Positions 17 through 9,240 are shown, numbered from the stretch's first letter. The stretch: DNA of 10,734 nt from Candidatus Methylomirabilota bacterium (GCA_046726415.1 JBKPAK010000243.1:1-10734); one strand, 5' to 3'. Translations and numbers: made by a program. The notes: generated by a model not told the origin, from the sequence alone.

Positions 17-964
17 TCAGGTGCGGCCGCAGGTCGGCGCCGCGCCTGACTGGCCCCGGCCGTGTACGCGGAGCCAGTGGCGGGCGATCTCGTCGCGACG
101 AGCGATCCAGGCTCCGCCCCGGTCGCGGAGGTGCCGCAGCACCCGGTCGAGACCCGCGATCCGCCCCGGCCGGCCGATCGTGCGGAGGTGGAGGCCGATT
201 GTCATCATCTTCGGCGCCGTTGCCCCCTCGGTCCAGAGCCAGTCGAAGGCGGCGATGACGTAGTCGGCGAAGTCGTTCGCCCGCACGAAACCGGCTTCAG
301 GCCGCTGGAACCTCATGTCGTTCGTGTCGAGGCTGTAGGGGAGGACGATATGCTGGCGGTCGCCCGCGTCCACCAGGTAGGGAAGGTCGTCGTCGTAGGC
401 GTCGCTATCGTAGAGGAAGCCTCCCTCCTCGATGAGGAGGCGGCGGGTGTTGGGTGTATGGGGACAGCGCGTGTGCCAGCCGACTGGGCGGACGCCGCAG
501 GCGTCGGCAATGGTCTTCACAGCGCGCGAGATCCACTCACGCTCCTCCCCCTCGGTCATCTCTTTGGAGCTGAGCCAGCGGTATCCGTGGCACGAGATCT
601 CGAAGCCCCGGGCCAGCGCATCGTGAGCGAGCCAAGGTGAGAGGCCGACTGCCTCCGCGCACGCGTTGAGGGTGCAGGTTGCCCGGTGCGCTTCGAGCAC
701 GCGCGCGATCCGCCAGTACCCCGCGCGGGGCCCGTAGTCGAAGTGCGACTCCATCGTCGGATTCGGCGCGCCCGCCACGGAGTCGATCATATCGTAGACG
801 TGCTCGTTCATCCGATCGCCCCGGCTGACCGCCTGCTCCGAGCCCTCCTCGACGTTCAACACGAGCGACACGGCGACGCGGGCGCCGTCCGGCCAGCGGG
901 CGTGCGGAGGATTCGGGCCGTAGCCGACGAAGTTCCGATGGGGCGGGACCACGAAGTCCGTCAT
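17..964 (-). CDS. Polysaccharide deacetylase (CE4) fold hydrolase, PuuE/allantoinase-like subfamily
   Basis: 315-aa ORF with PuuE-type motifs RNFVGYG..PP..WP..ARVAV, LNVEEG, DYGPRAG, HGYRW, YDSDAYDDDLPY, PYSLDTNDMRF and GLH.R..GRPGR. Shine-Dalgarno AGGAGGA (complement of 969-975) lies upstream of the ATG. Confidence 0.9.
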   Translation of the reverse strand: MTDFVVPPHRNFVGYGPNPPHARWPDGARVAVSLVLNVEEGSEQAVSRGDRMNEHVYDMIDSVAGAPNPTMESHFDYGPRAGYWRIARVLEAHRATCTLNACAEAVGLSPWLAHDALARGFEISCHGYRWLSSKEMTEGEEREWISRAVKTIADACGVRPVGWHTRCPHTPNTRRLLIEEGGFLYDSDAYDDDLPYLVDAGDRQHIVLPYSLDTNDMRFQRPEAGFVRANDFADYVIAAFDWLWTEGATAPKMMTIGLHLRTIGRPGRIAGLDRVLRHLRDRGGAWIARRDEIARHWLRVHGRGQSGAAPTCGRT

Positions 965-986
965 GTGATCCTCCTGGCGGCGGCGT

Positions 987-2291
987 CTATCGGTTCAGCA
1001 TCCGATTGGGCAAGTAGGTGACCAGGTCGGGGAAGACGATGATGATGGCGGTGCCGACCAGGAGCAGGAAGAAGAACGGCAGGGCCGCTCGCGACACGTA
1101 GGTGAGGCTGCGCCCCGTCATCATCTGCATGATGAACATCGGGAACCCCACCGGTGGCGTCAGCTCCGCGACCTGCACCAGCAGCACGATGTAGATCCCG
1201 AACCAGACTGGATCAACCCCGGCCTGGCGGATCATCGGCTGCACGACCGATGAGGTCAGGACCACCATGGAGATGCCGTCGAGGGCGAAGCCGAGGATGA
1301 CGTAGAGGACCGTGAGGGCGGCCAGGAGCCCGTACACCGACAGCTGGTACGACGTGATCAACCCCGCCGCCGCCCGCGGGATCCCCGTGTAGCCCATGGC
1401 GATAGTCATGAAGGAGGCGCCGGCCAGGATGAAGGCGATCATGCACGAGGTCTGGGTGGCGCCGACCAGGCTCTGGACGAAGTTCGACCAGGTAAGCGAG
1501 CCGTAGAGGAGCGACAGGGCCAGTGCCCCCAGCACGCCGATGGTCGCGGCCTCGGTCGGCGTGGCCACGCCCCCGTAGATCGATCCCACCACGAGCGCGA
1601 TGAGGCAGACGACGGGGATGAGCCGCCGCGACGACCATACCCGCTCGGTGAACGTCATCGAGATGTCGCTGGGCGGCGTCTTGCCAGGGTTGAGTAGCGC
1701 CCAGAGGACGACGTAGGCCATGAAGAGGATGACCATCATGATCCCCGGCACCACGCCCGCGATGAAGAGCCGGGCGATCGAGACCTCGGCGATGAAGCCG
1801 TAGACGATCATCATGATCGACGGCGGGATCAGGATGCCGAGCGTCCCCGACGCGGTGAGGGTGCCCACGGCCATCCGCTCGTCGTAGCCGCGGCGGAGCA
1901 GCTCGGGCAGCGCGATCTTCGCGATGGTGGCGCACGTCGCCGAGGTCGACCCGGAGACGGCGGCGAAGATGCCGCAGCCGACGACGTTCACGTGCATCAG
2001 CCGGCCGGGCAGCCGCGTCATCCAGGGCGCCAGGCCCCGGAACATGTCGTCGGAGAGGCGGGTGCGGAAGAGGATCTCGGCCATCCAGATGAAGAGCGGC
2101 AGGGCGGTAAGGGCCCAGTTGCCGCTCGCGCCCCAGACCGTTGTCGCCATCACCGTGCCGGCGGGGGCCGAGGTGAAGAGGACCATCCCGGCCAATCCGA
2201 CGCCGAGGAGCGAGAGGGCGACCCAGAGGCCACCGATGAGGAGCACGAACATCACGGCCAGCAGGGCCAGGACGACCAGGGTCGAATCCAT
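987..2291 (-). CDS. dctM: TRAP transporter large permease subunit
   Basis: 434-aa highly hydrophobic ORF with DctM motifs ALPLFIWM, FAAVSGSTSAT, GTLGILIPPS, GVATPTEAA and ELTPPVG. Starts 6 bp after the dctQ stop. Confidence 0.95.
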   Translation of the reverse strand: MDSTLVVLALLAVMFVLLIGGLWVALSLLGVGLAGMVLFTSAPAGTVMATTVWGASGNWALTALPLFIWMAEILFRTRLSDDMFRGLAPWMTRLPGRLMHVNVVGCGIFAAVSGSTSATCATIAKIALPELLRRGYDERMAVGTLTASGTLGILIPPSIMMIVYGFIAEVSIARLFIAGVVPGIMMVILFMAYVVLWALLNPGKTPPSDISMTFTERVWSSRRLIPVVCLIALVVGSIYGGVATPTEAATIGVLGALALSLLYGSLTWSNFVQSLVGATQTSCMIAFILAGASFMTIAMGYTGIPRAAAGLITSYQLSVYGLLAALTVLYVILGFALDGISMVVLTSSVVQPMIRQAGVDPVWFGIYIVLLVQVAELTPPVGFPMFIMQMMTGRSLTYVSRAALPFFFLLLVGTAIIIVFPDLVTYLPNRMLNR

Positions 2292-2297
2292 GGCGCC

Positions 2298-2828
2298 TCA
2301 GCCTTCCCGCGTGATCGGGGCCCCCGTCGGGTCGGCCGCCGCCCGCTCGTAACTCGTCGCGCCGCCTCGCAGGACGGCGACGAGGTCGTCGACGAACGCG
2401 AGGAAGAGGACGGCAGCCCCCATCGCCATCACCGCCTGGGGGATCCAGAGCGGGACGGGCAGGATGCCCTGCGACCGCTCGCCGAAGCGGTAGGCGTCAC
2501 GCGCCATGTCCACGACGTGATACGTGAAGTACCCGGTGACCAAGACGCCGAACGCGAGGCAGCCGGTCTCGAGCAAGAGCCGCTGCCCGCGGCCGGCCCG
2601 GCGGAGGAGGAGCGTCAAGCGGATGTGCCCGCCCGCCCGCAGCGTGTGGGCGAGCGCGAGGAAGGACGACGCCGTCAGCGCGTAGCCGGCGAGGTCGTCC
2701 GCCCCCGGGACGAGCACACCGATCAGGCGGCCCGCCACCTGGGCCACGACGAGCGCGGCAATCAGGAAGACAAAGAACGCGGCCAGCGCGCCGCAGGCGC
2801 GGTAGAGCTGATCGAGAAGGCGCCTCAC
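2298..2828 (-). CDS. dctQ: TRAP transporter small permease subunit
   Basis: 176-aa ORF with GTG start, four hydrophobic segments and the FLALAHTLR.GGHIR motif. Lies between dctP and dctM. Confidence 0.93.
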   Translation of the reverse strand: MRRLLDQLYRACGALAAFFVFLIAALVVAQVAGRLIGVLVPGADDLAGYALTASSFLALAHTLRAGGHIRLTLLLRRAGRGQRLLLETGCLAFGVLVTGYFTYHVVDMARDAYRFGERSQGILPVPLWIPQAVMAMGAAVLFLAFVDDLVAVLRGGATSYERAAADPTGAPITREG

Positions 2829-2838
2829 CCGGCCGGCG

Positions 2839-3807
2839 TCACTCGCGGAACTTGCGGATCGCGGCCTGGCCGGCGTCGCCGGCCCTCTTCAGCCACTCCT
2901 CGGTGAGGGTGGCGCCGACTTTCTGGAGCTCGGCGCGGAACTGTAGGGACGGCTCCGACACGGTCATGCCCTTGTCCTTGAGAATCTGCACGTGCTTCGC
3001 CGTCGCCTCCTCGCTCAGCTTCCAGCCGCGCGCCTCGGCCTTGACGGCGGCGTCCAGCACGGCCTTCTGGGCCTCGGCGGGCAACCGCTTGAAGGCGCCG
3101 TCGTTCACGATCACGACGTTCATGCTGTGATTGCCGCCGACCATGGTGACGTACCGGGTGAAATCCCAGGCCTGTGTGTCGACACCGGTCTGCGCCGAGG
3201 TGTACATCATCCCGACCAGCCCCGTGGAGAACGCCTGGGGGACCTCAGGCGCCGGTACGGTGGCCGGGATGGCGCCCATCAGTTCCGCCATGCGGGCGGT
3301 GACGGCGTTGTAGGCGCGGGCCTTTACTCCCTTGACGTCGGCGACGGAGTTCACCGCCGTCTTCGTGTAAAACGCCTGGGGCGGCCACGGCACCCCGTAG
3401 AGCAGCCGGATCCCCTGCTTGCCGAGCCGCTCGGCGATGATGGGGCGAGTGACCTCCCACAGCTTCTTCGCTTTGCGGTAGTCGTCGGCCAGGAAGGGGA
3501 TCGAGCTGACCTCGTAGAACGGATCCTCGTTGCCGAACTGGACGAGCAGGATCTCTCCGATCGGCACCTGCCGGCTCTGGACGGCGCGCTTGATCTCGGC
3601 CAGCTTGAACAGCGCCTGGTTGCTGTGCAGCACGATGTCCAGCTCACCCCGGGTCGGCTGCTTCACGTCCTGGGCGAACTGGTTGAGGTTCTGCGTGTGG
3701 AAATTGGAGTCGGGATAACCGGACGCCATGTCCCACTTCTCGGCGGCGGCCGGACTTGCGAACCCGATCAACAATGCGGCGGCGATTGCGAAGAGGACCG
3801 GCATCAT
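2839..3807 (-). CDS. dctP: TRAP transporter substrate-binding protein, resembling the Bordetella DctP6/DctP7 (pyroglutamate-binding) subfamily
   Basis: 322 aa with a signal peptide (MMPVLFAIAAALLIGFASPAAA/E) and motifs WDM.SGYP.SNFH, EIKRAVQ, NEDP, PFLA, WPPQ and the conserved Arg in KARAY. G-rich SD upstream (complement of 3812-3819). Confidence 0.93.
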   Translation of the reverse strand: MMPVLFAIAAALLIGFASPAAAEKWDMASGYPDSNFHTQNLNQFAQDVKQPTRGELDIVLHSNQALFKLAEIKRAVQSRQVPIGEILLVQFGNEDPFYEVSSIPFLADDYRKAKKLWEVTRPIIAERLGKQGIRLLYGVPWPPQAFYTKTAVNSVADVKGVKARAYNAVTARMAELMGAIPATVPAPEVPQAFSTGLVGMMYTSAQTGVDTQAWDFTRYVTMVGGNHSMNVVIVNDGAFKRLPAEAQKAVLDAAVKAEARGWKLSEEATAKHVQILKDKGMTVSEPSLQFRAELQKVGATLTEEWLKRAGDAGQAAIRKFRE

Positions 3808-3869
3808 GGCGCTCCCCCCTGTCGTCGGTCTCGCGGCGCGGCCACGTTAGCCAACGCCTCGACCGGCTG

Positions 3870-4724
3870 TCAAGCGGGCCGGCGTTTGAGCTTCGTCACC
3901 TGGATGAGGTTGACCTCGGCCAGGTACAGGTCGCCGAGGGAGTTTCCCCACACCCCGTGGCCGCCGTAGGCGGACGGACGGCCGCGAGCGAGCATCCGCC
4001 CGTCCGGAGAGTACATCGTGATCCTGGGAATTTGGTCGGTGACGTAGACCGTCCCGCTCCGGTCGACGTAGATGTCCATGGGATGGTAGAGATCGCCCCA
4101 CTCGCCGTACACGTCGCCCTCGGGACTGAAGAGCTGCACCCGGTTGTTCTCGCGATCGGCGACCAGCACGCGCTCGCCGGCGTCTACCCAGATCCCGTGG
4201 GGCGTGGTGAACTGCCCGCGTCCAGCCCCCGACGCTCCCCACGAGCTCAGGTGCCGGCCCTCCGCCGAGAAGCGGTGCACCGCGGAGTTGCCGTACCCGT
4301 CGGCGACGTAGATGTCGCCGTTCGGCGCCACGGCGACGTCCGCGGGGTGGTTGAACGGGGCCTGGAGCGCCGGGCGCCCCCGCTGCCCGAGCGTCAGCAC
4401 GATCCGGCCGTCCGCGGTGAGCTTCAGCACTTCGTGCTCGTCCCGGTTGCAGACGTAGAGGTGGTCGTCCGGTCCGATGTAGATCCCGTGCGCGTCGCGC
4501 AGGCGGCCGTCGCCCCAGCCGCTGAGGAAGTTGCCCTCGCTGTCGAAGACGACGATGGGCGGGTCCTTTCGCTGATAGAAGTAGACTCGGTCCTTCGAGT
4601 CGACCGCGACGTGGCTGATCAATCCGAAGGTGTGGCCGGCTGGCAGCAGACCCCATGGCCGCACCACGTCGTACACGTAGGCTCCCGTGCCGACCACCAG
4701 ATTCGTGACGTCGCTCGCGGTCAT
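3870..4724 (-). CDS. NHL-repeat beta-propeller, peptidyl-alpha-hydroxyglycine alpha-amidating lyase (PAL)-like protein
   Basis: NHL blades FNHPADVAVAPNGDIYVADGYGN and FTTPHGIWVD...VADRENNRVQLF. The start is probably the ATG at 4724 (MTASD..., 284 aa) with SD GGAGGC at 4731-4736, not 4823 as in the ORF track. No signal peptide. Confidence 0.88.
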   Translation of the reverse strand: MTASDVTNLVVGTGAYVYDVVRPWGLLPAGHTFGLISHVAVDSKDRVYFYQRKDPPIVVFDSEGNFLSGWGDGRLRDAHGIYIGPDDHLYVCNRDEHEVLKLTADGRIVLTLGQRGRPALQAPFNHPADVAVAPNGDIYVADGYGNSAVHRFSAEGRHLSSWGASGAGRGQFTTPHGIWVDAGERVLVADRENNRVQLFSPEGDVYGEWGDLYHPMDIYVDRSGTVYVTDQIPRITMYSPDGRMLARGRPSAYGGHGVWGNSLGDLYLAEVNLIQVTKLKRRPA

Positions 4725-5134
4725 CCGGACGCCTCCCGGGCGTGGACGTGGCCGCAGCCTCTTCACGTGGGGGCCCACGAAAGAGCCGCGCCGCGGAGGA
4801 ACGGGACTCCCATCAATGCGCAATCGGATCCGGGTACCATAGTTTCGTCAATCATGATGCGCACTTGCCGGACGTATGGCCGTAAGCCGTTGGGGATACG
4901 TCTGCAGTATTGATGTCGGAGAGATCTTAGTAGATGGATAAGAAGATCAACAACAACATCGTCGACCAGCACCGAAGAAACAGTGATCATAGGACGCGAG
5001 CCAGCGACTTCGGCGTGGCCGCGGCGCATGGCCCCCCACACCCCCCAACGCTCGTCACGCCCGGGGAACCCGGGGCGCTCCTCGATTTGCTTGACATGCT
5101 CATAGCTATCGCCGGGAACCGCCAGTGGCCAAGG

Positions 5135-5148
5135 TAGCATCGCCTATG
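5135..5148 (+). promoter_or_regulatory. Possible -10 box for a leaderless transcript of the amidohydrolase gene
   Basis: TAGCAT (TANNNT) at 5135-5140, 5 nt before ATG 5146. No clear SD in front of this ATG. Confidence 0.35.
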
Positions 5149-6073
5149 ACGCTTCCGAGGGACGGCGACCGGCAGGTCATCGACTTTCACGTCCACGTCG
5201 GGCCCGAGGTGCTCGCCCGTCGCTACGACGTGGGGACGCTCGGGGACGAGGCGGCCGCCGAAGGCTTCGGCGCCGTGCTCAAGCACCACTCGATCGCGAC
5301 GGCGCCGCTGGCGGCGCTCGCGCGAGCGCGCGGCCTCGTGATGGCGGGCGGCGTCGTGCTGAACCACGGCGTCGGCGGCTTCAATCCCGTCGCGATCGAC
5401 GCCTTGGCTGAGGCCAACAAAGCGAGGCCGGGGGTCGGCGAGCGAGGACCGGGTCCGAGCCGTCGTGTGGATGCCGACCGTCCACGCCGAGAGCCACCTC
5501 CGCGTCAACGCGCGGCGCGACTTCGTCCCGGCGTGGGGCGTCGACCCTGCGCGGTGCCGCGAGTTCCCGCCGGGTCTCGGGCTCAGCATCTGGGATGGCG
5601 GGCCGGACGAGCCCGGCCCAATCGCGTCAGCCGTGCATGCCGTGCTCGACCGCATCGCCACCCACGACCTCGTGCTGGCCACAGGCCACCTGTCGCGGGC
5701 AGAGGTGCTGGCCCTGGTCGAGGCCGCCGTCACGGCGGGGGTCCGCCGCGTCGTTGTGACCCACGCCTTCTACCAGACTACCCAGCTCAGCATCGACGAC
5801 CAGGTCGGGCTGGCCGCGCACTCCACCGTCTGTGTCGAATACTGCTGGAGCAATGTCGAGCTGGACGGGATCCGGCTCGACCGCTACGTGGATGCGATCC
5901 GGGCCGTGGGTCCCTCGCACGCGCTGCTCAGCTCGGACCTGGGCCAACCGTCGACGGAGACGATTGCGGCCGGCCTCGCGGCCTTCCACCAGAGCCTGGT
6001 GGCACGGGGCGTCCCCGAAGACCACGTCGCCGAGATGATGATCGCCAACCCGCATCGCCTGCTCGGACTGTGA
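5146..6073 (+). CDS. DUF6282-like amidohydrolase-superfamily metal-dependent hydrolase (one frameshift at ~5425-5445)
   Basis: The first frame gives DFHVH.GP, VLKHH and GGVVLN..VGGFNP.A. The +1 frame continues RAVVWMPT, LATGHLS, VVVTHA, LSSDLGQ and NP.RLLGL-stop. Together these make one HxH/KxH/H/H/D TIM-barrel motif set. A G run lies at 5430-5434. Confidence 0.8.
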
Positions 6074-6125
6074 GGGCTGAGCGTTCACATGATGCGCGCG
6101 GACCGAATCCAGAGAGTGTTCGACG

Positions 6126-6167
6126 TCGACTCAAATACATGAGTCGGATAGGCTCAGTCATATGAGC
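6126..6167 (+). promoter_or_regulatory. Leaderless sigma70-type promoter of the TA operon with two CTCA-N6-TGAG operators
   Basis: TCGACT (6126-6131)-N17-TAGGCT (6149-6154)-N7-ATG (6162), with no SD. Inverted repeats CGACTCA-aataca-TGAGTCG (6127-6146) and GCTCA-gtcata-TGAGC (6152-6167). Confidence 0.65.
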
Positions 6168-6420
6168 AAGAGGCTTCAGGTGCTGTTGGACGAGGCAGAG
6201 CTGCGCCAGATTCGGCGCATCGCGCGGGCTCGACGCATGACCGTGGCCGAGTGGGTGCGGCAGGCCCTGCGTGCGGCGAGCCGGCGCGAGCCCCTCGGCG
6301 ACACCGACAAGAAGCTGGAGAGCGTACGCGCGGCGTCGCGTCACTCGTTCCCGACCGGGGAGATCGAGCAGGATGTTGGCCGAGATCGAGCGTGGGTACC
6401 TCGCTCGGGACGCCGGGTGA
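6162..6420 (+). CDS. vapB: Ribbon-helix-helix (CopG-like) antitoxin; one extra G at ~6371
   Basis: [19 protein letters not shown]...[12 protein letters not shown] is an RHH pattern. Removing one G in GAGCAGGATG gives ...[26 protein letters not shown] (6418-6420), which overlaps the toxin start as GTGA. Confidence 0.8.
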
Positions 6421-6812
6421 TCCTCGGCGACTCCACCATTCCGATGTATCTCGTCGGCGCCGAGCACCCTCACAAGGCGGACGTGCGACGCCTGCTCGAG
6501 CGCTCCATCGCCATGCGCGAGCGTCTGGTCACCGACGCCGAGGTTCTGCAAGAGATTCTCCACCGGTATGTCGCCATCGACCGGCGCGATGCGATCCAGC
6601 CCTGCCTTCGACGCACTGCTGGCCGTCGTCGACGAGGTCTTCGTCATCGATGCGCCGACGGTCGATCGGGCGAAGACCATCGTGCTGGGGAACGCCAGGC
6701 TCTCGGTCCGCGATGCTCTCCGCCTGGCTGTTCATGGCGCGAGAAGGCGTAGTCCCATCATGACCTTCGACCGCGGCTTTGACGGCGTCCCGGTATGGAG
6801 CGGATTTTCTGA
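6417..6812 (+). CDS. vapC: PIN-domain VapC-type toxin, with about four indels
   Basis: GTG 6417 gives [14 protein letters not shown]..., then [12 protein letters not shown], (shift ~6600) AFDALL..., LSVRDAL, (shifts ~6731 and ~6756) [11 protein letters not shown], (shift ~6790) GMERIF-TGA 6810-6812. The PIN acidic tetrad D/E/D/D is present. Confidence 0.85.
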
Positions 6813-6950
6813 GGACGATCCGACGATCGCGAGCGGTCGGCGAGCTCCGCCTTCCATGACGCCCATGGCCCACGTGCCTCGCCCAGCACGGGGTGCGGTG
6901 ATGCCTCCTCGCAGATCCACCGCGCCGCGCGCCCTGGCGATGCGACGTGG

Positions 6951-7719
6951 GTGGGGCTGCATCCTGCGCACGATGTGCTGGACGGCGAGCTGTGGTATGG
7001 CATCACCGCGGACCGAACCCCACGAGCCGACCGCGCACTCATCATAGTCAGCTCCGCGCGGCAGGCCTACATGGCCGACCGACTCCCCGAGAGCCTCGCC
7101 CGCGCCACCGCCGATCCCGGACCGTCGACCGTGAGCCGGGAGGCAGCTGTCCGCTGGCTGCGCGGCGCGGAGACAGGTTCGGTGGCCAAGGCCCTTGACG
7201 ATCTCGCGGCCTTCTTCCTGCGCTACGTCGTGCTGTGCGACCGACGCACAGCGCTGTGGGTCGCCGCCTGGGCGCTCGACAGCTGGTGTTACCGGGCCTT
7301 CCGGATCTTCCCCTACCTCTCGATCCGGTCGGCGGAGAAGCGGTGCGGGAAGAGCCGGATGCTCGGGCTGCTGCCGCGCGTGTGCTTCAAGGCCTCGCCG
7401 GTGACCGCGCATCCCACGGAGGCCCAGCTCCACCGTTCGGCGGCGCGGACGGGCGGGGCCCCAGCTCTTCGACGAGATCGAGACCCTCAAGGGAGACAAG
7501 GACCGCTTCGACGCCCTGATCGCGGTGCTCAACGTGGGCTTCGAGCAGGGTGGTGTGGTGACGCGGCTCGAGAAGCGTGGGAAACGGTTCGTGGAGGAGC
7601 CGTATGAGGTCTACGCCCCACGGGTGCTGGCCGGCATCGGCGGGCTGAAGGACACGCTGGAGGACCGGGCGCTGCCGCTGGTGATGTTGCGGCGCCGGAA
7701 GAGTGAGTCGGTCGAGCGA
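6951..7719 (+). pseudogene. Truncated P-loop NTPase of the type found in DUF3631-containing mobile-element replication proteins
   Basis: LRYVVL...AAW...PYLSIRSAEKRCGKS (Walker A-like, 7329-7355). After an extra C at ~7460 comes QLFDEIE (Walker B), LNVGFEQGG.V.R, YAPRVLAGIG.L.DTLEDR and MLRR...ESVER. Family-like sequence stops at ~7719 with no stop codon nearby. The start is uncertain. Confidence 0.72.
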
Positions 7720-7986
7720 TCGGGGAGCATAAGAATTCCAAAGCCCGTTCGCTGCAGCCAACCTCTCCCCCTAACCCCCTGCCACAGGCCACGATCGTGC
7801 CCCGGAGGGCGAAGTCAAGCGTCCGGGAAGGGCGATGACCCTCGGCGGTGCTCAGAAGGGCGGCGATCCGTCGAGAGGCGTGCCCTCGGAGAGAAGAAGT
7901 CGGGAGCGGCCAGAGCCAGAAGGAAGACGGGAGGCAGACGACGGCGAGAGGTCCGGATCCGGCGAGGGAATGCCGGGACGAGGGGC

Positions 7987-8252
7987 GTGTTCGGCTACGC
8001 TCCCCGTCGCGGCGGCGGGCGCGACGGCTCCGCAGAGGTCTACGACCACATGCGCGTTCAAGGCTGTCCAGCGGTGGACATCGACCTGACGGAGCGAATC
8101 GCAGAGCTGGTCGACCTGGACAAGGTGCTGTCTCCGTGACCGAGCTAGAACGCGAGAACCGGCGCCTCCAGGGCGAGCTGATCCGAGCGCGCGAAGACAT
8201 CCCCGACCTTCAGCGACGGCTCCCTATGCGTACGAGGAGATTCGCCAGCTGA
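7987..8252 (+). CDS. Small hypothetical protein or gene fragment ending in a coiled coil (probably one ORF with an indel at ~8133, or two coupled ORFs)
   Basis: Protein-like reading EVYDHMRVQGCPAVDIDLTERIAELVDLDKVL ends at TGA 8137-8139, overlapping GTG 8136, which reads VTELERENRRLQGELIRAREDIPDLQRRL (heptad-like). No family recognised. Confidence 0.3.
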
Positions 8253-8316
8253 GCGCCGAGGGTGCCACGGCGAAAGTCGCGCTCCACGTAGTAGCCCTGC
8301 CGCGAGGAAGCGAATA

Positions 8317-8883
8317 ATGGGCGTCGGTAGCAATCTTGGGAAATGGGATGACTGGTACCGCGATCTTCATGCCAACGCCCCGGACCCATTCCTGTACGGC
8401 GACACCGTGACGTATCGGATGCCGCCGCGTTCCTGGTCGATGTGGCCACCGTCGAGGACTGGGGATGCGGTGCGGGTGGGTTTCCGACCGTTCTGCAAGA
8501 GCGCCTATGTCGGGATCGACGGCAGCCAGACGCCGTTCGCTGACCGGATCGTCGACCTGTGCCAGTACCAGTCGCACGTAGAGGGCATCCTGATCCGGCA
8601 TGTGCTGGAACACAACGACGCATGGGAGCGGGTGCTCGAGAATGCCGTGCTCTCGTTCACAAGGAAGCTCTGCCTGATCCTGTTCACGCCGTTCAGCGAG
8701 ACGACCCAAGTCCTTTCGCGCTATTGGCACGGCGTGAATGTCCCGGACATTTCGTTCTGCCGAAGCGACATCGAGCGTAAGCTGACGGACCTCCGGTGGG
8801 AGCTCTTCGACAACCTCCCGACATCCACGCACTACGGGATCGAGCATGCCTACATGATCTGGCGTAACCAGAAAGGAGGCTGA
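8317..8883 (+). CDS. Class I SAM-dependent methyltransferase-like protein (compensating indels at ~8421 and ~8482)
   Basis: The alternative frame over 8421-8480 reads AAAFLVDVATVEDWGCGAGG (motif I). The main frame then gives YVGIDGS (motif II) and RHVLEH (post-motif IV). SD-like GAGGAA upstream. Confidence 0.7.
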   Translation: MGVGSNLGKWDDWYRDLHANAPDPFLYGDTVTYRMPPRSWSMWPPSRTGDAVRVGFRPFCKSAYVGIDGSQTPFADRIVDLCQYQSHVEGILIRHVLEHNDAWERVLENAVLSFTRKLCLILFTPFSETTQVLSRYWHGVNVPDISFCRSDIERKLTDLRWELFDNLPTSTHYGIEHAYMIWRNQKGG

Positions 8884-8914
8884 GCAAGCCGGTCCCATTC
8901 AACGTGGAAACCTG

Positions 8915-9088
8915 CTTCCCAGTGACCACCCGGACACAATTTGGAACGGCCATGGTGCTGGCGATCCAATGTGCCGGATGTGATGAGACGGTTCATGCAG
9001 CTCAGGTCGAGTATCGGATCGGCGCGGGCAGCCACTCACGCACCGGTTCCACCTCGGCTGCTATGGGCAGGCGCTCCCTCAGAACTGA
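8915..9088 (+). pseudogene. Remnant of a small CxxC...HxxC putative zinc-binding protein
   Basis: Joining frames across two compensating indels (~8969 and ~9020-9034) gives LPSDHPDTIWNGHGAGDP-CAGC-DETVHAAQVEYRI...LTHRF-HLGC-YG. No convincing start codon or SD. Confidence 0.55.
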
Positions 9089-9240
9089 GTTCTCAGGGCG
9101 CCGTGTCTCCGCCGGGTCCTGCTCCCTGCGCTGCGCCGAACACACGCGCCGGGTGAGCAGGTCGAGGCGAATCCAGGCGGTGACTGGGTCGGGCTGCTGC
9201 GGGAGGTCGGCAGCCGATACGGGACGAAAAATCACCCGCG

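Follow-up and report, generated by a model that had tools for sequence, protein, structure and literature searches.

Background

Several PuuE-related hydrolases of the CE4 type open small cyclic imides in catabolism, after which an amidase acts; described examples are BpIH of Burkholderia/Paraburkholderia phytofirmans, CIH of Pseudomonas putida and the fungal HxnM (PMC11424739, PMC9304392), the last of which is reported as an enzyme of nicotinate catabolism (PMC9304392). BpIH is given as 61% identical to PuuE, and for both of these metal-independent enzymes a Glu-His-Trp triad and a later catalytic His have been described (PMC11424739). Here we analyse a stretch of 10,734 bases from a Candidatus Methylomirabilota bacterium (GCA_046726415.1, JBKPAK010000243.1:1-10734), called the window throughout, in which a gene for a PuuE-like hydrolase stands in one row with a complete TRAP transporter and with a gene for an NHL beta-propeller similar to the amidating lyase PAL.

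PAL has been described as a zinc enzyme which cleaves the C(alpha)-N bond of alpha-hydroxyglycine, yielding an amide and glyoxylate (PMC6529398), and its catalytic dyad is given as Tyr654/Arg706 in rat and Tyr651/Arg703 in human (PMC10303134). On the side of transport, the binding proteins DctP7 and DctP6 of Bordetella pertussis are reported to have been crystallised with 5-oxoproline, for which DctP7 shows a KD of 0.3 uM, and a 5-oxoprolinase gene is reported near dctP6/7 (PMC13274462).

A putative operon for a cyclic amide or ureide

The window is the whole of one contig (G000:C243) of a draft genome of 7.6 Mb in 352 contigs. Its nearest public loci belong to metagenome-assembled genomes (MAGs) of Candidatus Rokubacteria/Rokuibacteriota, the source being a soil Rokubacteria genome, and the G+C content along the window is ~0.60-0.71. 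Only 16 bases separate the beginning of the window from the stop codon of the PuuE-like gene, and the region past that gene lies outside the window. The five co-oriented genes are the following:

17..964, minus strand: 315-aa paralogue within the PuuE family of hydrolases (CE4/NodB fold), at the end of the putative operon; PF01522 (Polysacc_deac_1), TIGR03212-like.
987..2291, minus strand: DctM, TRAP large permease, 434 aa; PF06808 (E 2e-80), TIGR00786 (367 bits, cut-off 268).
2298..2828, minus strand: DctQ, TRAP small permease, 176 aa; PF04290 (E 2e-20).
2839..3807, minus strand: DctP, TRAP periplasmic solute-binding protein, 322 aa; PF03480, NF037995.
3870..4724, minus strand: PAL-like NHL beta-propeller with six blades, 284 aa, at the head of the putative operon; NHL repeats.

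The gaps between these open reading frames (ORFs) measure 22, 6, 10 and 62 bp, in agreement with an earlier interpretation made from the DNA alone (the sequence-only reading), which had noted five co-oriented genes with gaps of 6-62 bp. The start of the NHL gene was placed at the ATG at 4724 and not at an upstream TTG; 12 of the 15 listed members of its cluster are 284 aa long. The gene content is far beyond chance. The identical order recurs in related as well as unrelated genomes.

We propose, tentatively and with somewhat less than even confidence, that the five minus-strand genes form one operon for the import and degradation of a small carboxylate-bearing cyclic amide or ureide with a shape like that of 5-oxoproline. 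Transcription would run from the NHL gene through dctP, dctQ and dctM to the PuuE-like gene. In a first step the TRAP transporter would import the acid, DctP holding its carboxylate by means of a conserved arginine. In the cytoplasm, the metal-independent PuuE-family hydrolase would then open the ring at an amide or imide bond or hydrolyse the resulting amide; PuuE, the BpIH imidase and HxnM are precedents for the opening of small rings by CE4/PuuE proteins in the catabolism of N-heterocycles. Finally, the propeller, acting as a zinc-type PAL-like enzyme, would cleave the N-C(alpha)(OH) bond of an alpha-hydroxyglycine-type adduct, and the products would be an amide or urea and a 2-oxo acid such as glyoxylate. 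An ATP-dependent HyuAB lactamase/hydantoinase would be part of the module's neighbourhood in relatives, and probably in the own genome on an adjoining contig; in relatives a class-III aminotransferase would belong to the same neighbourhood. The sequences themselves show what the genes are, their operon-like spacing, their recurrent co-occurrence and the conservation of residues of a catalytic type; co-transcription, substrate class, order of the steps and products are what we infer here.

The cyclic-amide/ureide module put forward in the sequence-only reading is thus plausible in its PuuE-like, TRAP and PAL-like parts, whereas the link drawn there to a divergent DUF6282 gene is not supported, as detailed below. 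It is plausible to regard the module as an uncharacterised variant of a catabolic cyclic-amide operon, in which the bacterial PAL homologue would be the element of interest.

Conservation of the module

Neighbourhoods were surveyed by tblastn (at least 50% query coverage, E <=1e-10) in flanks of 7-9 kb around anchor genes; the loci came from peptide-pattern scans with at most 80 per anchor, and all counts are to be read as samples. The same-genus genome G002 holds all six genes in identical order, and the unpublished genome G011 keeps NHL-DctPQM-PuuE-like. The module order is also present in public Rokubacteria loci (L018/L097, L020, L031/L104), and two loci from proteobacterial MAGs (L100, L101) carry a rearranged module. 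The numbers of loci with a given family nearby were:

NHL-anchored (79 loci): PuuE-like 4, DctP 4, HyuA 8, HyuB 7, DUF6282 2.
PuuE-like-anchored (80 loci): DctP 23, DctM 30, NHL 13, HyuA 3, HyuB 4, DUF6282 2.
DctP-anchored (79 loci): PuuE-like 2, NHL 2, HyuA 15, HyuB 16, DUF6282 2.

Eleven of 91 PuuE-family sequences in a FastTree topology make up the window's own subclade, which spans at least two phyla and includes alphaproteobacterial and other proteobacterial MAGs; 8/11 have an NHL gene within 6 kb, and 7/11 have TRAP genes within 3.5 kb. A second, independent pairing is seen in six loci of the Bosea type, where a different PuuE paralogue (391-395 bits) is followed, 145-230 bp downstream and in the same orientation, by an NHL homologue. 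Outside the Rokubacteria, an NHL homologue was present in 10/76 PuuE-anchored loci versus 0/77 DctP-anchored ones (Fisher p = 7e-4, a value that overstates independence since the loci are phylogenetically related).

The conserved core consists of the PuuE-like hydrolase and the PAL-like propeller, wrapped in the lineage of the window around a TRAP importer whose binding protein is of the 5-oxoproline type; HyuAB and an aminotransferase often accompany it. When all four families of the sequence-only reading are compared by neighbourhood, as had been suggested there, the PuuE-like, TRAP and NHL genes recur together across phyla, while DUF6282 joins them in close relatives only.

Several observations weigh against a single operon of this function. 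No PuuE-like or homologous TRAP gene lies nearby in 75/79 NHL loci, an NHL gene is lacking in 67/80 loci of the PuuE clade, and neither NHL nor TRAP genes were found with two members of the subclade, L102 and the truncated locus L099. Furthermore, relatives of DctP pair with HyuAB (15-16/79) and seldom with a PuuE-like gene (2/79), and because this pairing is the prevalent one, the transporter may serve HyuAB instead. Finally, the PuuE tree was used without branch supports, and the loci counts are, as said, those of samples.

The PuuE-like hydrolase

With PuuE of Pseudomonas fluorescens (3CL6) and P. aeruginosa (1Z7A) the window protein has the CE4/NodB fold in common, the match extending over the whole length (E ~1e-85 to 1e-88) at ~50% identity to solved PuuE; in detail, its structural relatives are 1z7a (E 9e-88), PuuE 3cl6 (E 2e-85) and 3s6o (E 7e-75). 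The motifs NVEEGSE (EEG), HGYRW and IGLHLR (GLH) align with motifs of 1z7a, a correspondence of motifs in which residue numbers were not mapped singly. The Glu-His-Trp triad that replaces the Asp-His-His metal triad of CE4 enzymes is kept, as is the later catalytic His. As in PuuE, the His and Trp of the triad form a His-x3-Trp motif, and the window protein would presumably hydrolyse a cyclic amide without the help of a metal. The triad is also common to BpIH. Compared with the CIH/HpPgdA group the window protein is nearer to PuuE (3qbu E 2e-11 versus ~1e-88), and, unlike in the imide hydrolase systems, no partner half-amidase was identified at the window locus.

The protein nevertheless differs from PuuE proper. 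It scores 319.2 bits against the TIGR03212 equivalog, under the curated cut-off of 424.6, and of 17 matches to the PuuE-family model in the own genome a single one is above this cut-off (C336, 486 bits). The window-type anchors scanned in other genomes all score 270-343 bits, and in the tree of 91 sequences, read for its topology and without support values, those passing the cut-off (487-530 bits) form a separate clade. Since the window protein falls short of the cut-off (319 versus 424.6 bits) and the genome holds a separate PuuE of 486 bits, it is a paralogue and probably not the housekeeping allantoinase. Its gene, moreover, is part of a putative TRAP operon with the NHL gene and does not accompany urate-pathway genes; no urate genes were found in the window or in the G002 neighbourhood.

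These data bear on the explanation that the PuuE-like protein is simply an allantoinase, that the locus serves ordinary purine/allantoin catabolism, and that the NHL protein takes the part of ureidoglycolate lyase or allantoicase. The ~50% identity with conserved catalytic motifs would fit, as would the NCBI label 'allantoinase PuuE' on a 57%-identical relative from Bosea, and, by our own reasoning, ureidoglycolate is an alpha-hydroxyglycine adduct which would suit PAL-type chemistry. In addition, a cut-off-passing PuuE can occur close to a window-type paralogue. However, the scores of the whole window-type group, the separate passing gene in the own genome and the separate clade of true PuuE proteins argue against it, and no genes for uricase, HIU hydrolase or OHCU decarboxylase were seen in the annotated loci. 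Allantoin also lacks a carboxylate for a TRAP binding protein, and TRAP receptors require one. We regard this explanation as quite improbable. Labels of 'allantoinase PuuE' on the window-type clade, e.g. in Bosea, may be over-annotations.

The proximity just mentioned concerns some Alphaproteobacteria and one Rokubacteria MAG, with window-type paralogues of 308-338 bits. In L106 (9001-10778) and L135 (9001-10875) the window-type paralogue lies directly beside a passing PuuE (496 and 530 bits, respectively); in L118 (9001-9876, 16787-17665) the passing PuuE (529 bits) is ~7 kb away and adjoins a hydantoin/allantoin-type racemase. This side-by-side arrangement hints at a ureide-related substrate.

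The NHL propeller and its similarity to PAL

The AlphaFold model of the NHL protein is a six-bladed propeller (pLDDT 94.1, 24-25 strands). Positions 29-274 of a family profile made from 32 homologues align with 24-318 of the PAL structure 3fvz (E 2.6e-34), and PAL (3fvz/5wm0) was the only full-length single-stretch match to this profile, the TRIM matches being repeats of one blade. H79, Y144, H176, D190-R191 and H256 are invariant in the 32 homologues, which are 43-92% identical. In a single-sequence match, residues 54-202 correspond to 560-717 of 5wm0 (full-length PAM); if the ends of this stretch are joined without gaps, H79 would fall on 585 and R191 on 706, numbers that derive from the end-points and not from a residue alignment. 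The zinc ligands of PAL we take to be His585, His690 and His786.

The protein is thus probably PAL-like, with catalysis and metal binding predicted, and the PAL-like lyase named in the sequence-only reading fits the full-length match and the invariant His, Tyr and Arg, which would lie at positions like those of PAL. In common with PAL is the six-bladed NHL propeller, and the spacing of the invariant His/Tyr/His/Arg/His would be PAL-like. The two differ in that the identity is 23%, in that the window protein is a cytoplasmic protein of a bacterium, for which neither a PHM partner nor a signal peptide was seen, and in that its substrate would be a small metabolite instead of a peptide.

Against this assignment it has to be held that Foldseek ranks PAL (3fvz, TMq 0.81) level with non-enzymatic, RNA-binding TRIM NHL domains (0.78-0.81), that searches with the family profile and with residues 1-118 and 194-284 placed TRIM and 'Pizza' NHL proteins first, and that the residue correspondence to PAL depends on stretch end-points. 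The NHL protein could accordingly be no lyase at all and instead be a lactonase-type or binding propeller, active e.g. in substrate delivery or in an unrelated hydrolysis. The equal Foldseek scores would fit this, as would weak sub-threshold matches to SMP-30/gluconolactonase-like and other propeller families, and the IMG label 'DNA-binding beta-propeller fold protein YncE' on some cluster members, which stands in that database next to 'peptidylglycine monooxygenase'. Yet all 32 homologues, the most distant of them 43% identical, keep the three His, the Tyr and the Arg, no protein other than PAL gives a collinear match over the full length, and amidases and amidohydrolases recur as neighbours, so that we consider a non-lyase function very unlikely.

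If the PAL-like reading is followed further, the bacterial PAL homologue might be a catabolic 'hemiaminal lyase' that, together with a PuuE-family hydrolase or an amidase, dismantles small N-acyl or N-carbamoyl alpha-hydroxy-amino acids. This is a speculative extension by analogy and in itself rather unlikely. In one version the protein may replace the unrelated ureidoglycolate lyase or allantoicase in a non-canonical ureide route, which may lead from a 5-hydroxyhydantoin- or allantoin-like acid to a ureidoglycolate-type adduct and on to urea and glyoxylate. In a second version it may open 2-hydroxy-5-oxoproline, the lactam form of alpha-ketoglutaramate and, for DctP, a look-alike of 5-oxoproline, after which an amide hydrolase may free ammonia and 2-oxoglutarate. 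If true, either version would for the first time assign a physiological role to the many PAL-like proteins of prokaryotes, and would supply an enzyme for a reaction so far regarded as spontaneous. Since the putative operon links a PAL homologue with a 5-oxoproline-type transporter and a PuuE-family ring hydrolase, it provides a short, testable list of candidate substrates and cloning-ready genes.

Homologues of the NHL protein are widespread among prokaryotes, with finds in Rokubacteria, Chloroflexota including SAR202, Dormibacterota and Proteobacteria. Among the papers listed in our searches, judged by titles and abstracts, none assigns a function to bacterial or NHL amidating-lyase enzymes and none describes an operon of this kind. 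At window position 4357, inside the NHL gene, a low-depth contig (depth 5.6) from the public soil-metagenome run X2 is one base shorter, while the frame of the window matches all homologues; probably the contig is in error there, or the X2 sample carries a broken allele.

The transporter and the HyuAB neighbourhood

A complete TRAP set is encoded by adjoining genes for DctP, DctQ and DctM, with gaps of 10 and 6 bp. DctP has a hydrophobic N-terminus, judged by eye to be a signal peptide. Its best solved relatives are 2pfy (E 3.2e-93), 2pfz (E 6.6e-78) and 6wgm (E 2e-54); the first two, which we take to be DctP7 and DctP6 of Bordetella pertussis, respectively, align with it end to end (residues 23-321) and have the RAY-motif arginine in common. 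By sequence, the window DctP therefore appears to be nearest to the 5-oxoproline binders DctP7 and DctP6, with ligand specificity read from similarity, and the sequence-only reading had likewise pointed to Bordetella DctP6/7 as binders of pyroglutamate. This likeness concerns full-length similarity and the RAY arginine, not ligand-contact residues. As in Bordetella, a HyuAB/5-oxoprolinase-type gene is found near window-type loci; the difference is that the transporter of the window subclade is embedded between the PuuE-like and NHL genes.

Such HyuAB genes are not part of the window itself. In G002, HyuA-HyuB converge on the PuuE-like gene, and 23 bp after DUF6282 comes the gene for a class-III aminotransferase. 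Contig C93 of the own genome carries an 88% HyuB orthologue that ends 578 bp from the contig end, and in G002 the stop codons of HyuB and the PuuE-like gene are 574 bp apart. From this agreement in spacing, C93 probably abuts the window, and HyuAB probably adjoins the module in the own genome, which has 17 matches to the HyuB query, 2 of them with internal stops. An orthologue of the aminotransferase was not found in the own genome (best match 39%).

For the wider neighbourhood, eight PuuE-anchored loci (125 ORFs) and 17 NHL-anchored loci of other phyla (78 ORFs) were annotated. L100 reads HyuA-HyuB-cyclase-aminotransferase / NHL / DctPQM / PuuE-like, and in L101 the module is likewise flanked by HyuA-HyuB and a class-III aminotransferase, with malate synthase, a consumer of glyoxylate, adjoining the NHL gene. 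In L103 genes for creatininase, hydantoin racemase, ureidoglycolate lyase, an amidase and an arginase-family protein surround the NHL and PuuE-like genes, and loci from Nisaea and Thalassobaculum hold dihydropyrimidinase-like, carbon-nitrogen hydrolase and hydantoin/allantoin racemase-type genes. The 17 NHL-anchored loci contain Amidase (PF01425) in 5, Amidohydro_1/2 in 3, a second NHL copy in 2, and HyuAB with DctP as well as a CE4 gene in 1 each, these family counts being given without a baseline. Several Rokubacteria NHL loci have a ketopantoate-reductase-type gene as sole neighbour. The claim of the sequence-only reading that the enzymes point to C-N chemistry fits these surroundings of HyuAB, amidases, hydantoin racemase, aminotransferase and one malate synthase.

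The arrangement in G002, L100 and L101, where HyuA-HyuB and a class-III aminotransferase flank the module, recalls the caprolactamase/5-oxoprolinase/N-methylhydantoinase systems with an omega-aminotransferase, as lactam opening followed by transamination is the known logic of HyuAB with an aminotransferase. The window differs from them in that the HyuAB genes lie outside it and in the missing aminotransferase orthologue.

The main rival to the proposed operon follows from here, namely plain utilisation of 5-oxoproline, which the TRAP transporter would import and HyuA/HyuB of the ATP-dependent 5-oxoprolinase type would convert to glutamate, the PuuE-like and NHL genes being passengers whose roles are minor or unrelated. 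It draws on the kinship of DctP to 5-oxoproline binders, on the 5-oxoprolinase gene reported near the Bordetella genes (PMC13274462), on the position of HyuA/HyuB beside the cluster in G002 with a fitting HyuB spacing on C93, and on the presence of HyuA or HyuB within 9 kb in 15-16/79 DctP loci, often directly downstream of DctPQM. However, the supposed passengers lie inside the operon, separated from DctM and DctP by 22 and 62 bp, while HyuAB is convergent and outside; in G011 and L020 NHL-DctPQM-PuuE-like is kept, and the available DNA shows no HyuAB; and PuuE-like and NHL genes are paired without a window-type TRAP in L103, L105 and the Bosea loci. On balance, plain 5-oxoproline utilisation seems unlikely to us, and we continue to favour an operon in which the PuuE-like hydrolase and the propeller take part.

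In G011 (L015:9837-12655), genes for an AllG-like protein (oxamate carbamoyltransferase subunit) and an FdrA-like protein with a CoA-ligase fold are situated ~1 kb downstream of the PuuE-like gene, following a cytidylate-kinase-like/BON gene; this is a hint at a ureide pathway from one genome.

The DUF6282 gene

Two further features lie upstream of the NHL gene:

4760..5097, no strand assigned: ~340 bp between the NHL and DUF6282 genes without counterpart in G002, whose match is contiguous across 989-4760 and 5097-6074.
5146..6073, plus strand: DUF6282 amidohydrolase-superfamily gene, divergent and frameshifted, with a split PF19799 match.

The gene starts with the ATG at 5146 and has its stop at 6073, so the divergent amidohydrolase of the sequence-only reading is present on the plus strand, although with a broken frame. 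PF19799 positions 2-84 are read at 5176-5415 and positions 87-193 at 5459-5830 in different frames, the two pieces scoring 66.7 and 85.7 bits, above the cut-off, while the intact protein of G002 has 308 aa and scores 166 bits. Compared with G002, the window has a +1 frameshift caused by one extra base in a run of five G (5430-5434). Contigs of two public soil-metagenome runs from two studies, X1 and X2, lack one base at 5430 and have an intact frame; the base-less form is supported by the full depth in both (10.5/10.5 in X1, 6.51/6.51 in X2), and these contigs show 0-8 differences to the window over 113-185 bases around this position. Runs X3 and X6 had no coverage at 5430, and 6600-7200 was largely uncovered in most runs; moreover, single Logan contigs can carry indels, as the X2 gap at 4357 shows.

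Since both pieces keep all nearly invariant residues of the family, the break would stem either from an error in the assembly or from a rare allele of recent origin. The residues D13/H15/H17, H113/E115, H181, H206 and D264 are nearly invariant in 14 aligned rows, and the motifs DxHxH, HAE, GH, TH and D are kept across the two pieces. Programmed frameshifting was considered and rejected, as the extra G is simply missing from the gene of G002 and from the environmental contigs. The idea that indels are common throughout the assembly was rejected as well, as an X2 contig matches window 5512-6583 with 0 gaps.

The structural model of DUF6282 has the TIM-barrel fold of amidohydrolases, with NagA, PTER and PHP proteins as weak neighbours (TMq 0.45-0.61), and no paper on DUF6282 was found in the literature searched. 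The sequence-only reading had all four families, DUF6282 included, act on one heterocycle, with DUF6282 carrying out a second amide hydrolysis. This is in line with its divergent position next to the operon, which the window has in common with G002 and L018/L097/L273, with the class-III aminotransferase 23 bp behind it in G002, and with a conserved amidohydrolase metal-ligand pattern and an intact frame in environmental contigs. The distribution speaks against it, however. DUF6282 adjoins the module in 2/80 PuuE-, 2/79 NHL- and 2/12 DUF6282-anchored loci, all of them close Rokubacteria, and only two close Rokubacteria loci among the 12 DUF6282-anchored ones hold any other module gene. The rest of the module is kept without DUF6282 in G011, L020, L100 and L101, and elsewhere the family has unrelated partners, distant copies lying with AsnB-like and FAD monooxygenase genes and the second copy of the own genome with SDR, citrate synthase, aconitase and PrpF genes. 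A joint pathway of all four families is hence highly improbable in our view, and DUF6282 appears, from these neighbourhoods, to be a peripheral neighbour common to close relatives and not a conserved member of the module. A function for DUF6282 proposed from the window locus should not be propagated.

The other contexts are as follows. In L278, L279, L281 and L282 (~4200-9100; Planctomycetota, Verrucomicrobia) the order is unknown 330-aa gene / AsnB-like / DUF6282 / FAD-dependent monooxygenase, a different and possibly biosynthetic setting. The second DUF6282 of the own genome (L016:8283-9869, on G000:C244) is part of a 528-aa ORF whose N-terminal part matches the C-terminal domain of thiamine pyrophosphate (TPP) enzymes; this ORF may represent a fused gene or may have been called too long.

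In G002 the starts of the NHL and DUF6282 genes are ~75 bp apart, and the window thus has ~340 bp extra in the divergent promoter region. Part of this region (4760-5097) is richer in AT, and it also contains, at 5027-5087, a dispersed repeat of ~60 bp which matches dozens of sites in related genomes at 81-96%. An inverted-repeat search of 4700-5150 gave none of note.

Other features of the window

A scan of the window against Rfam at gathering thresholds gave no match and a promoter scan of the window 0 sigma-70-like sites, and the terminator-like hits (5 in the window versus 1.9 expected) are uninformative.

At 6162-6810 a vapBC-like pair is found, consisting of a ribbon-helix-helix antitoxin and a PIN toxin with weak Pfam hits, which has several frame-breaking single-base indels when compared to an intact, 75%-identical pair in G008 (L012). 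At least the first of these breaks looks real, since an X2 contig shows no gap against the window over 5512-6583, and the region looks like a decaying toxin-antitoxin locus.

A repeat of ~300 bp at 7725-8036, whose overlapping ORFs gave no Pfam hit, has copies on contigs C345, C241, C348, C59, C51 and C306 of the own genome (81-97%) and one in G001, and is possibly a miniature inverted-repeat transposable element (MITE) or the remnant of an insertion sequence.

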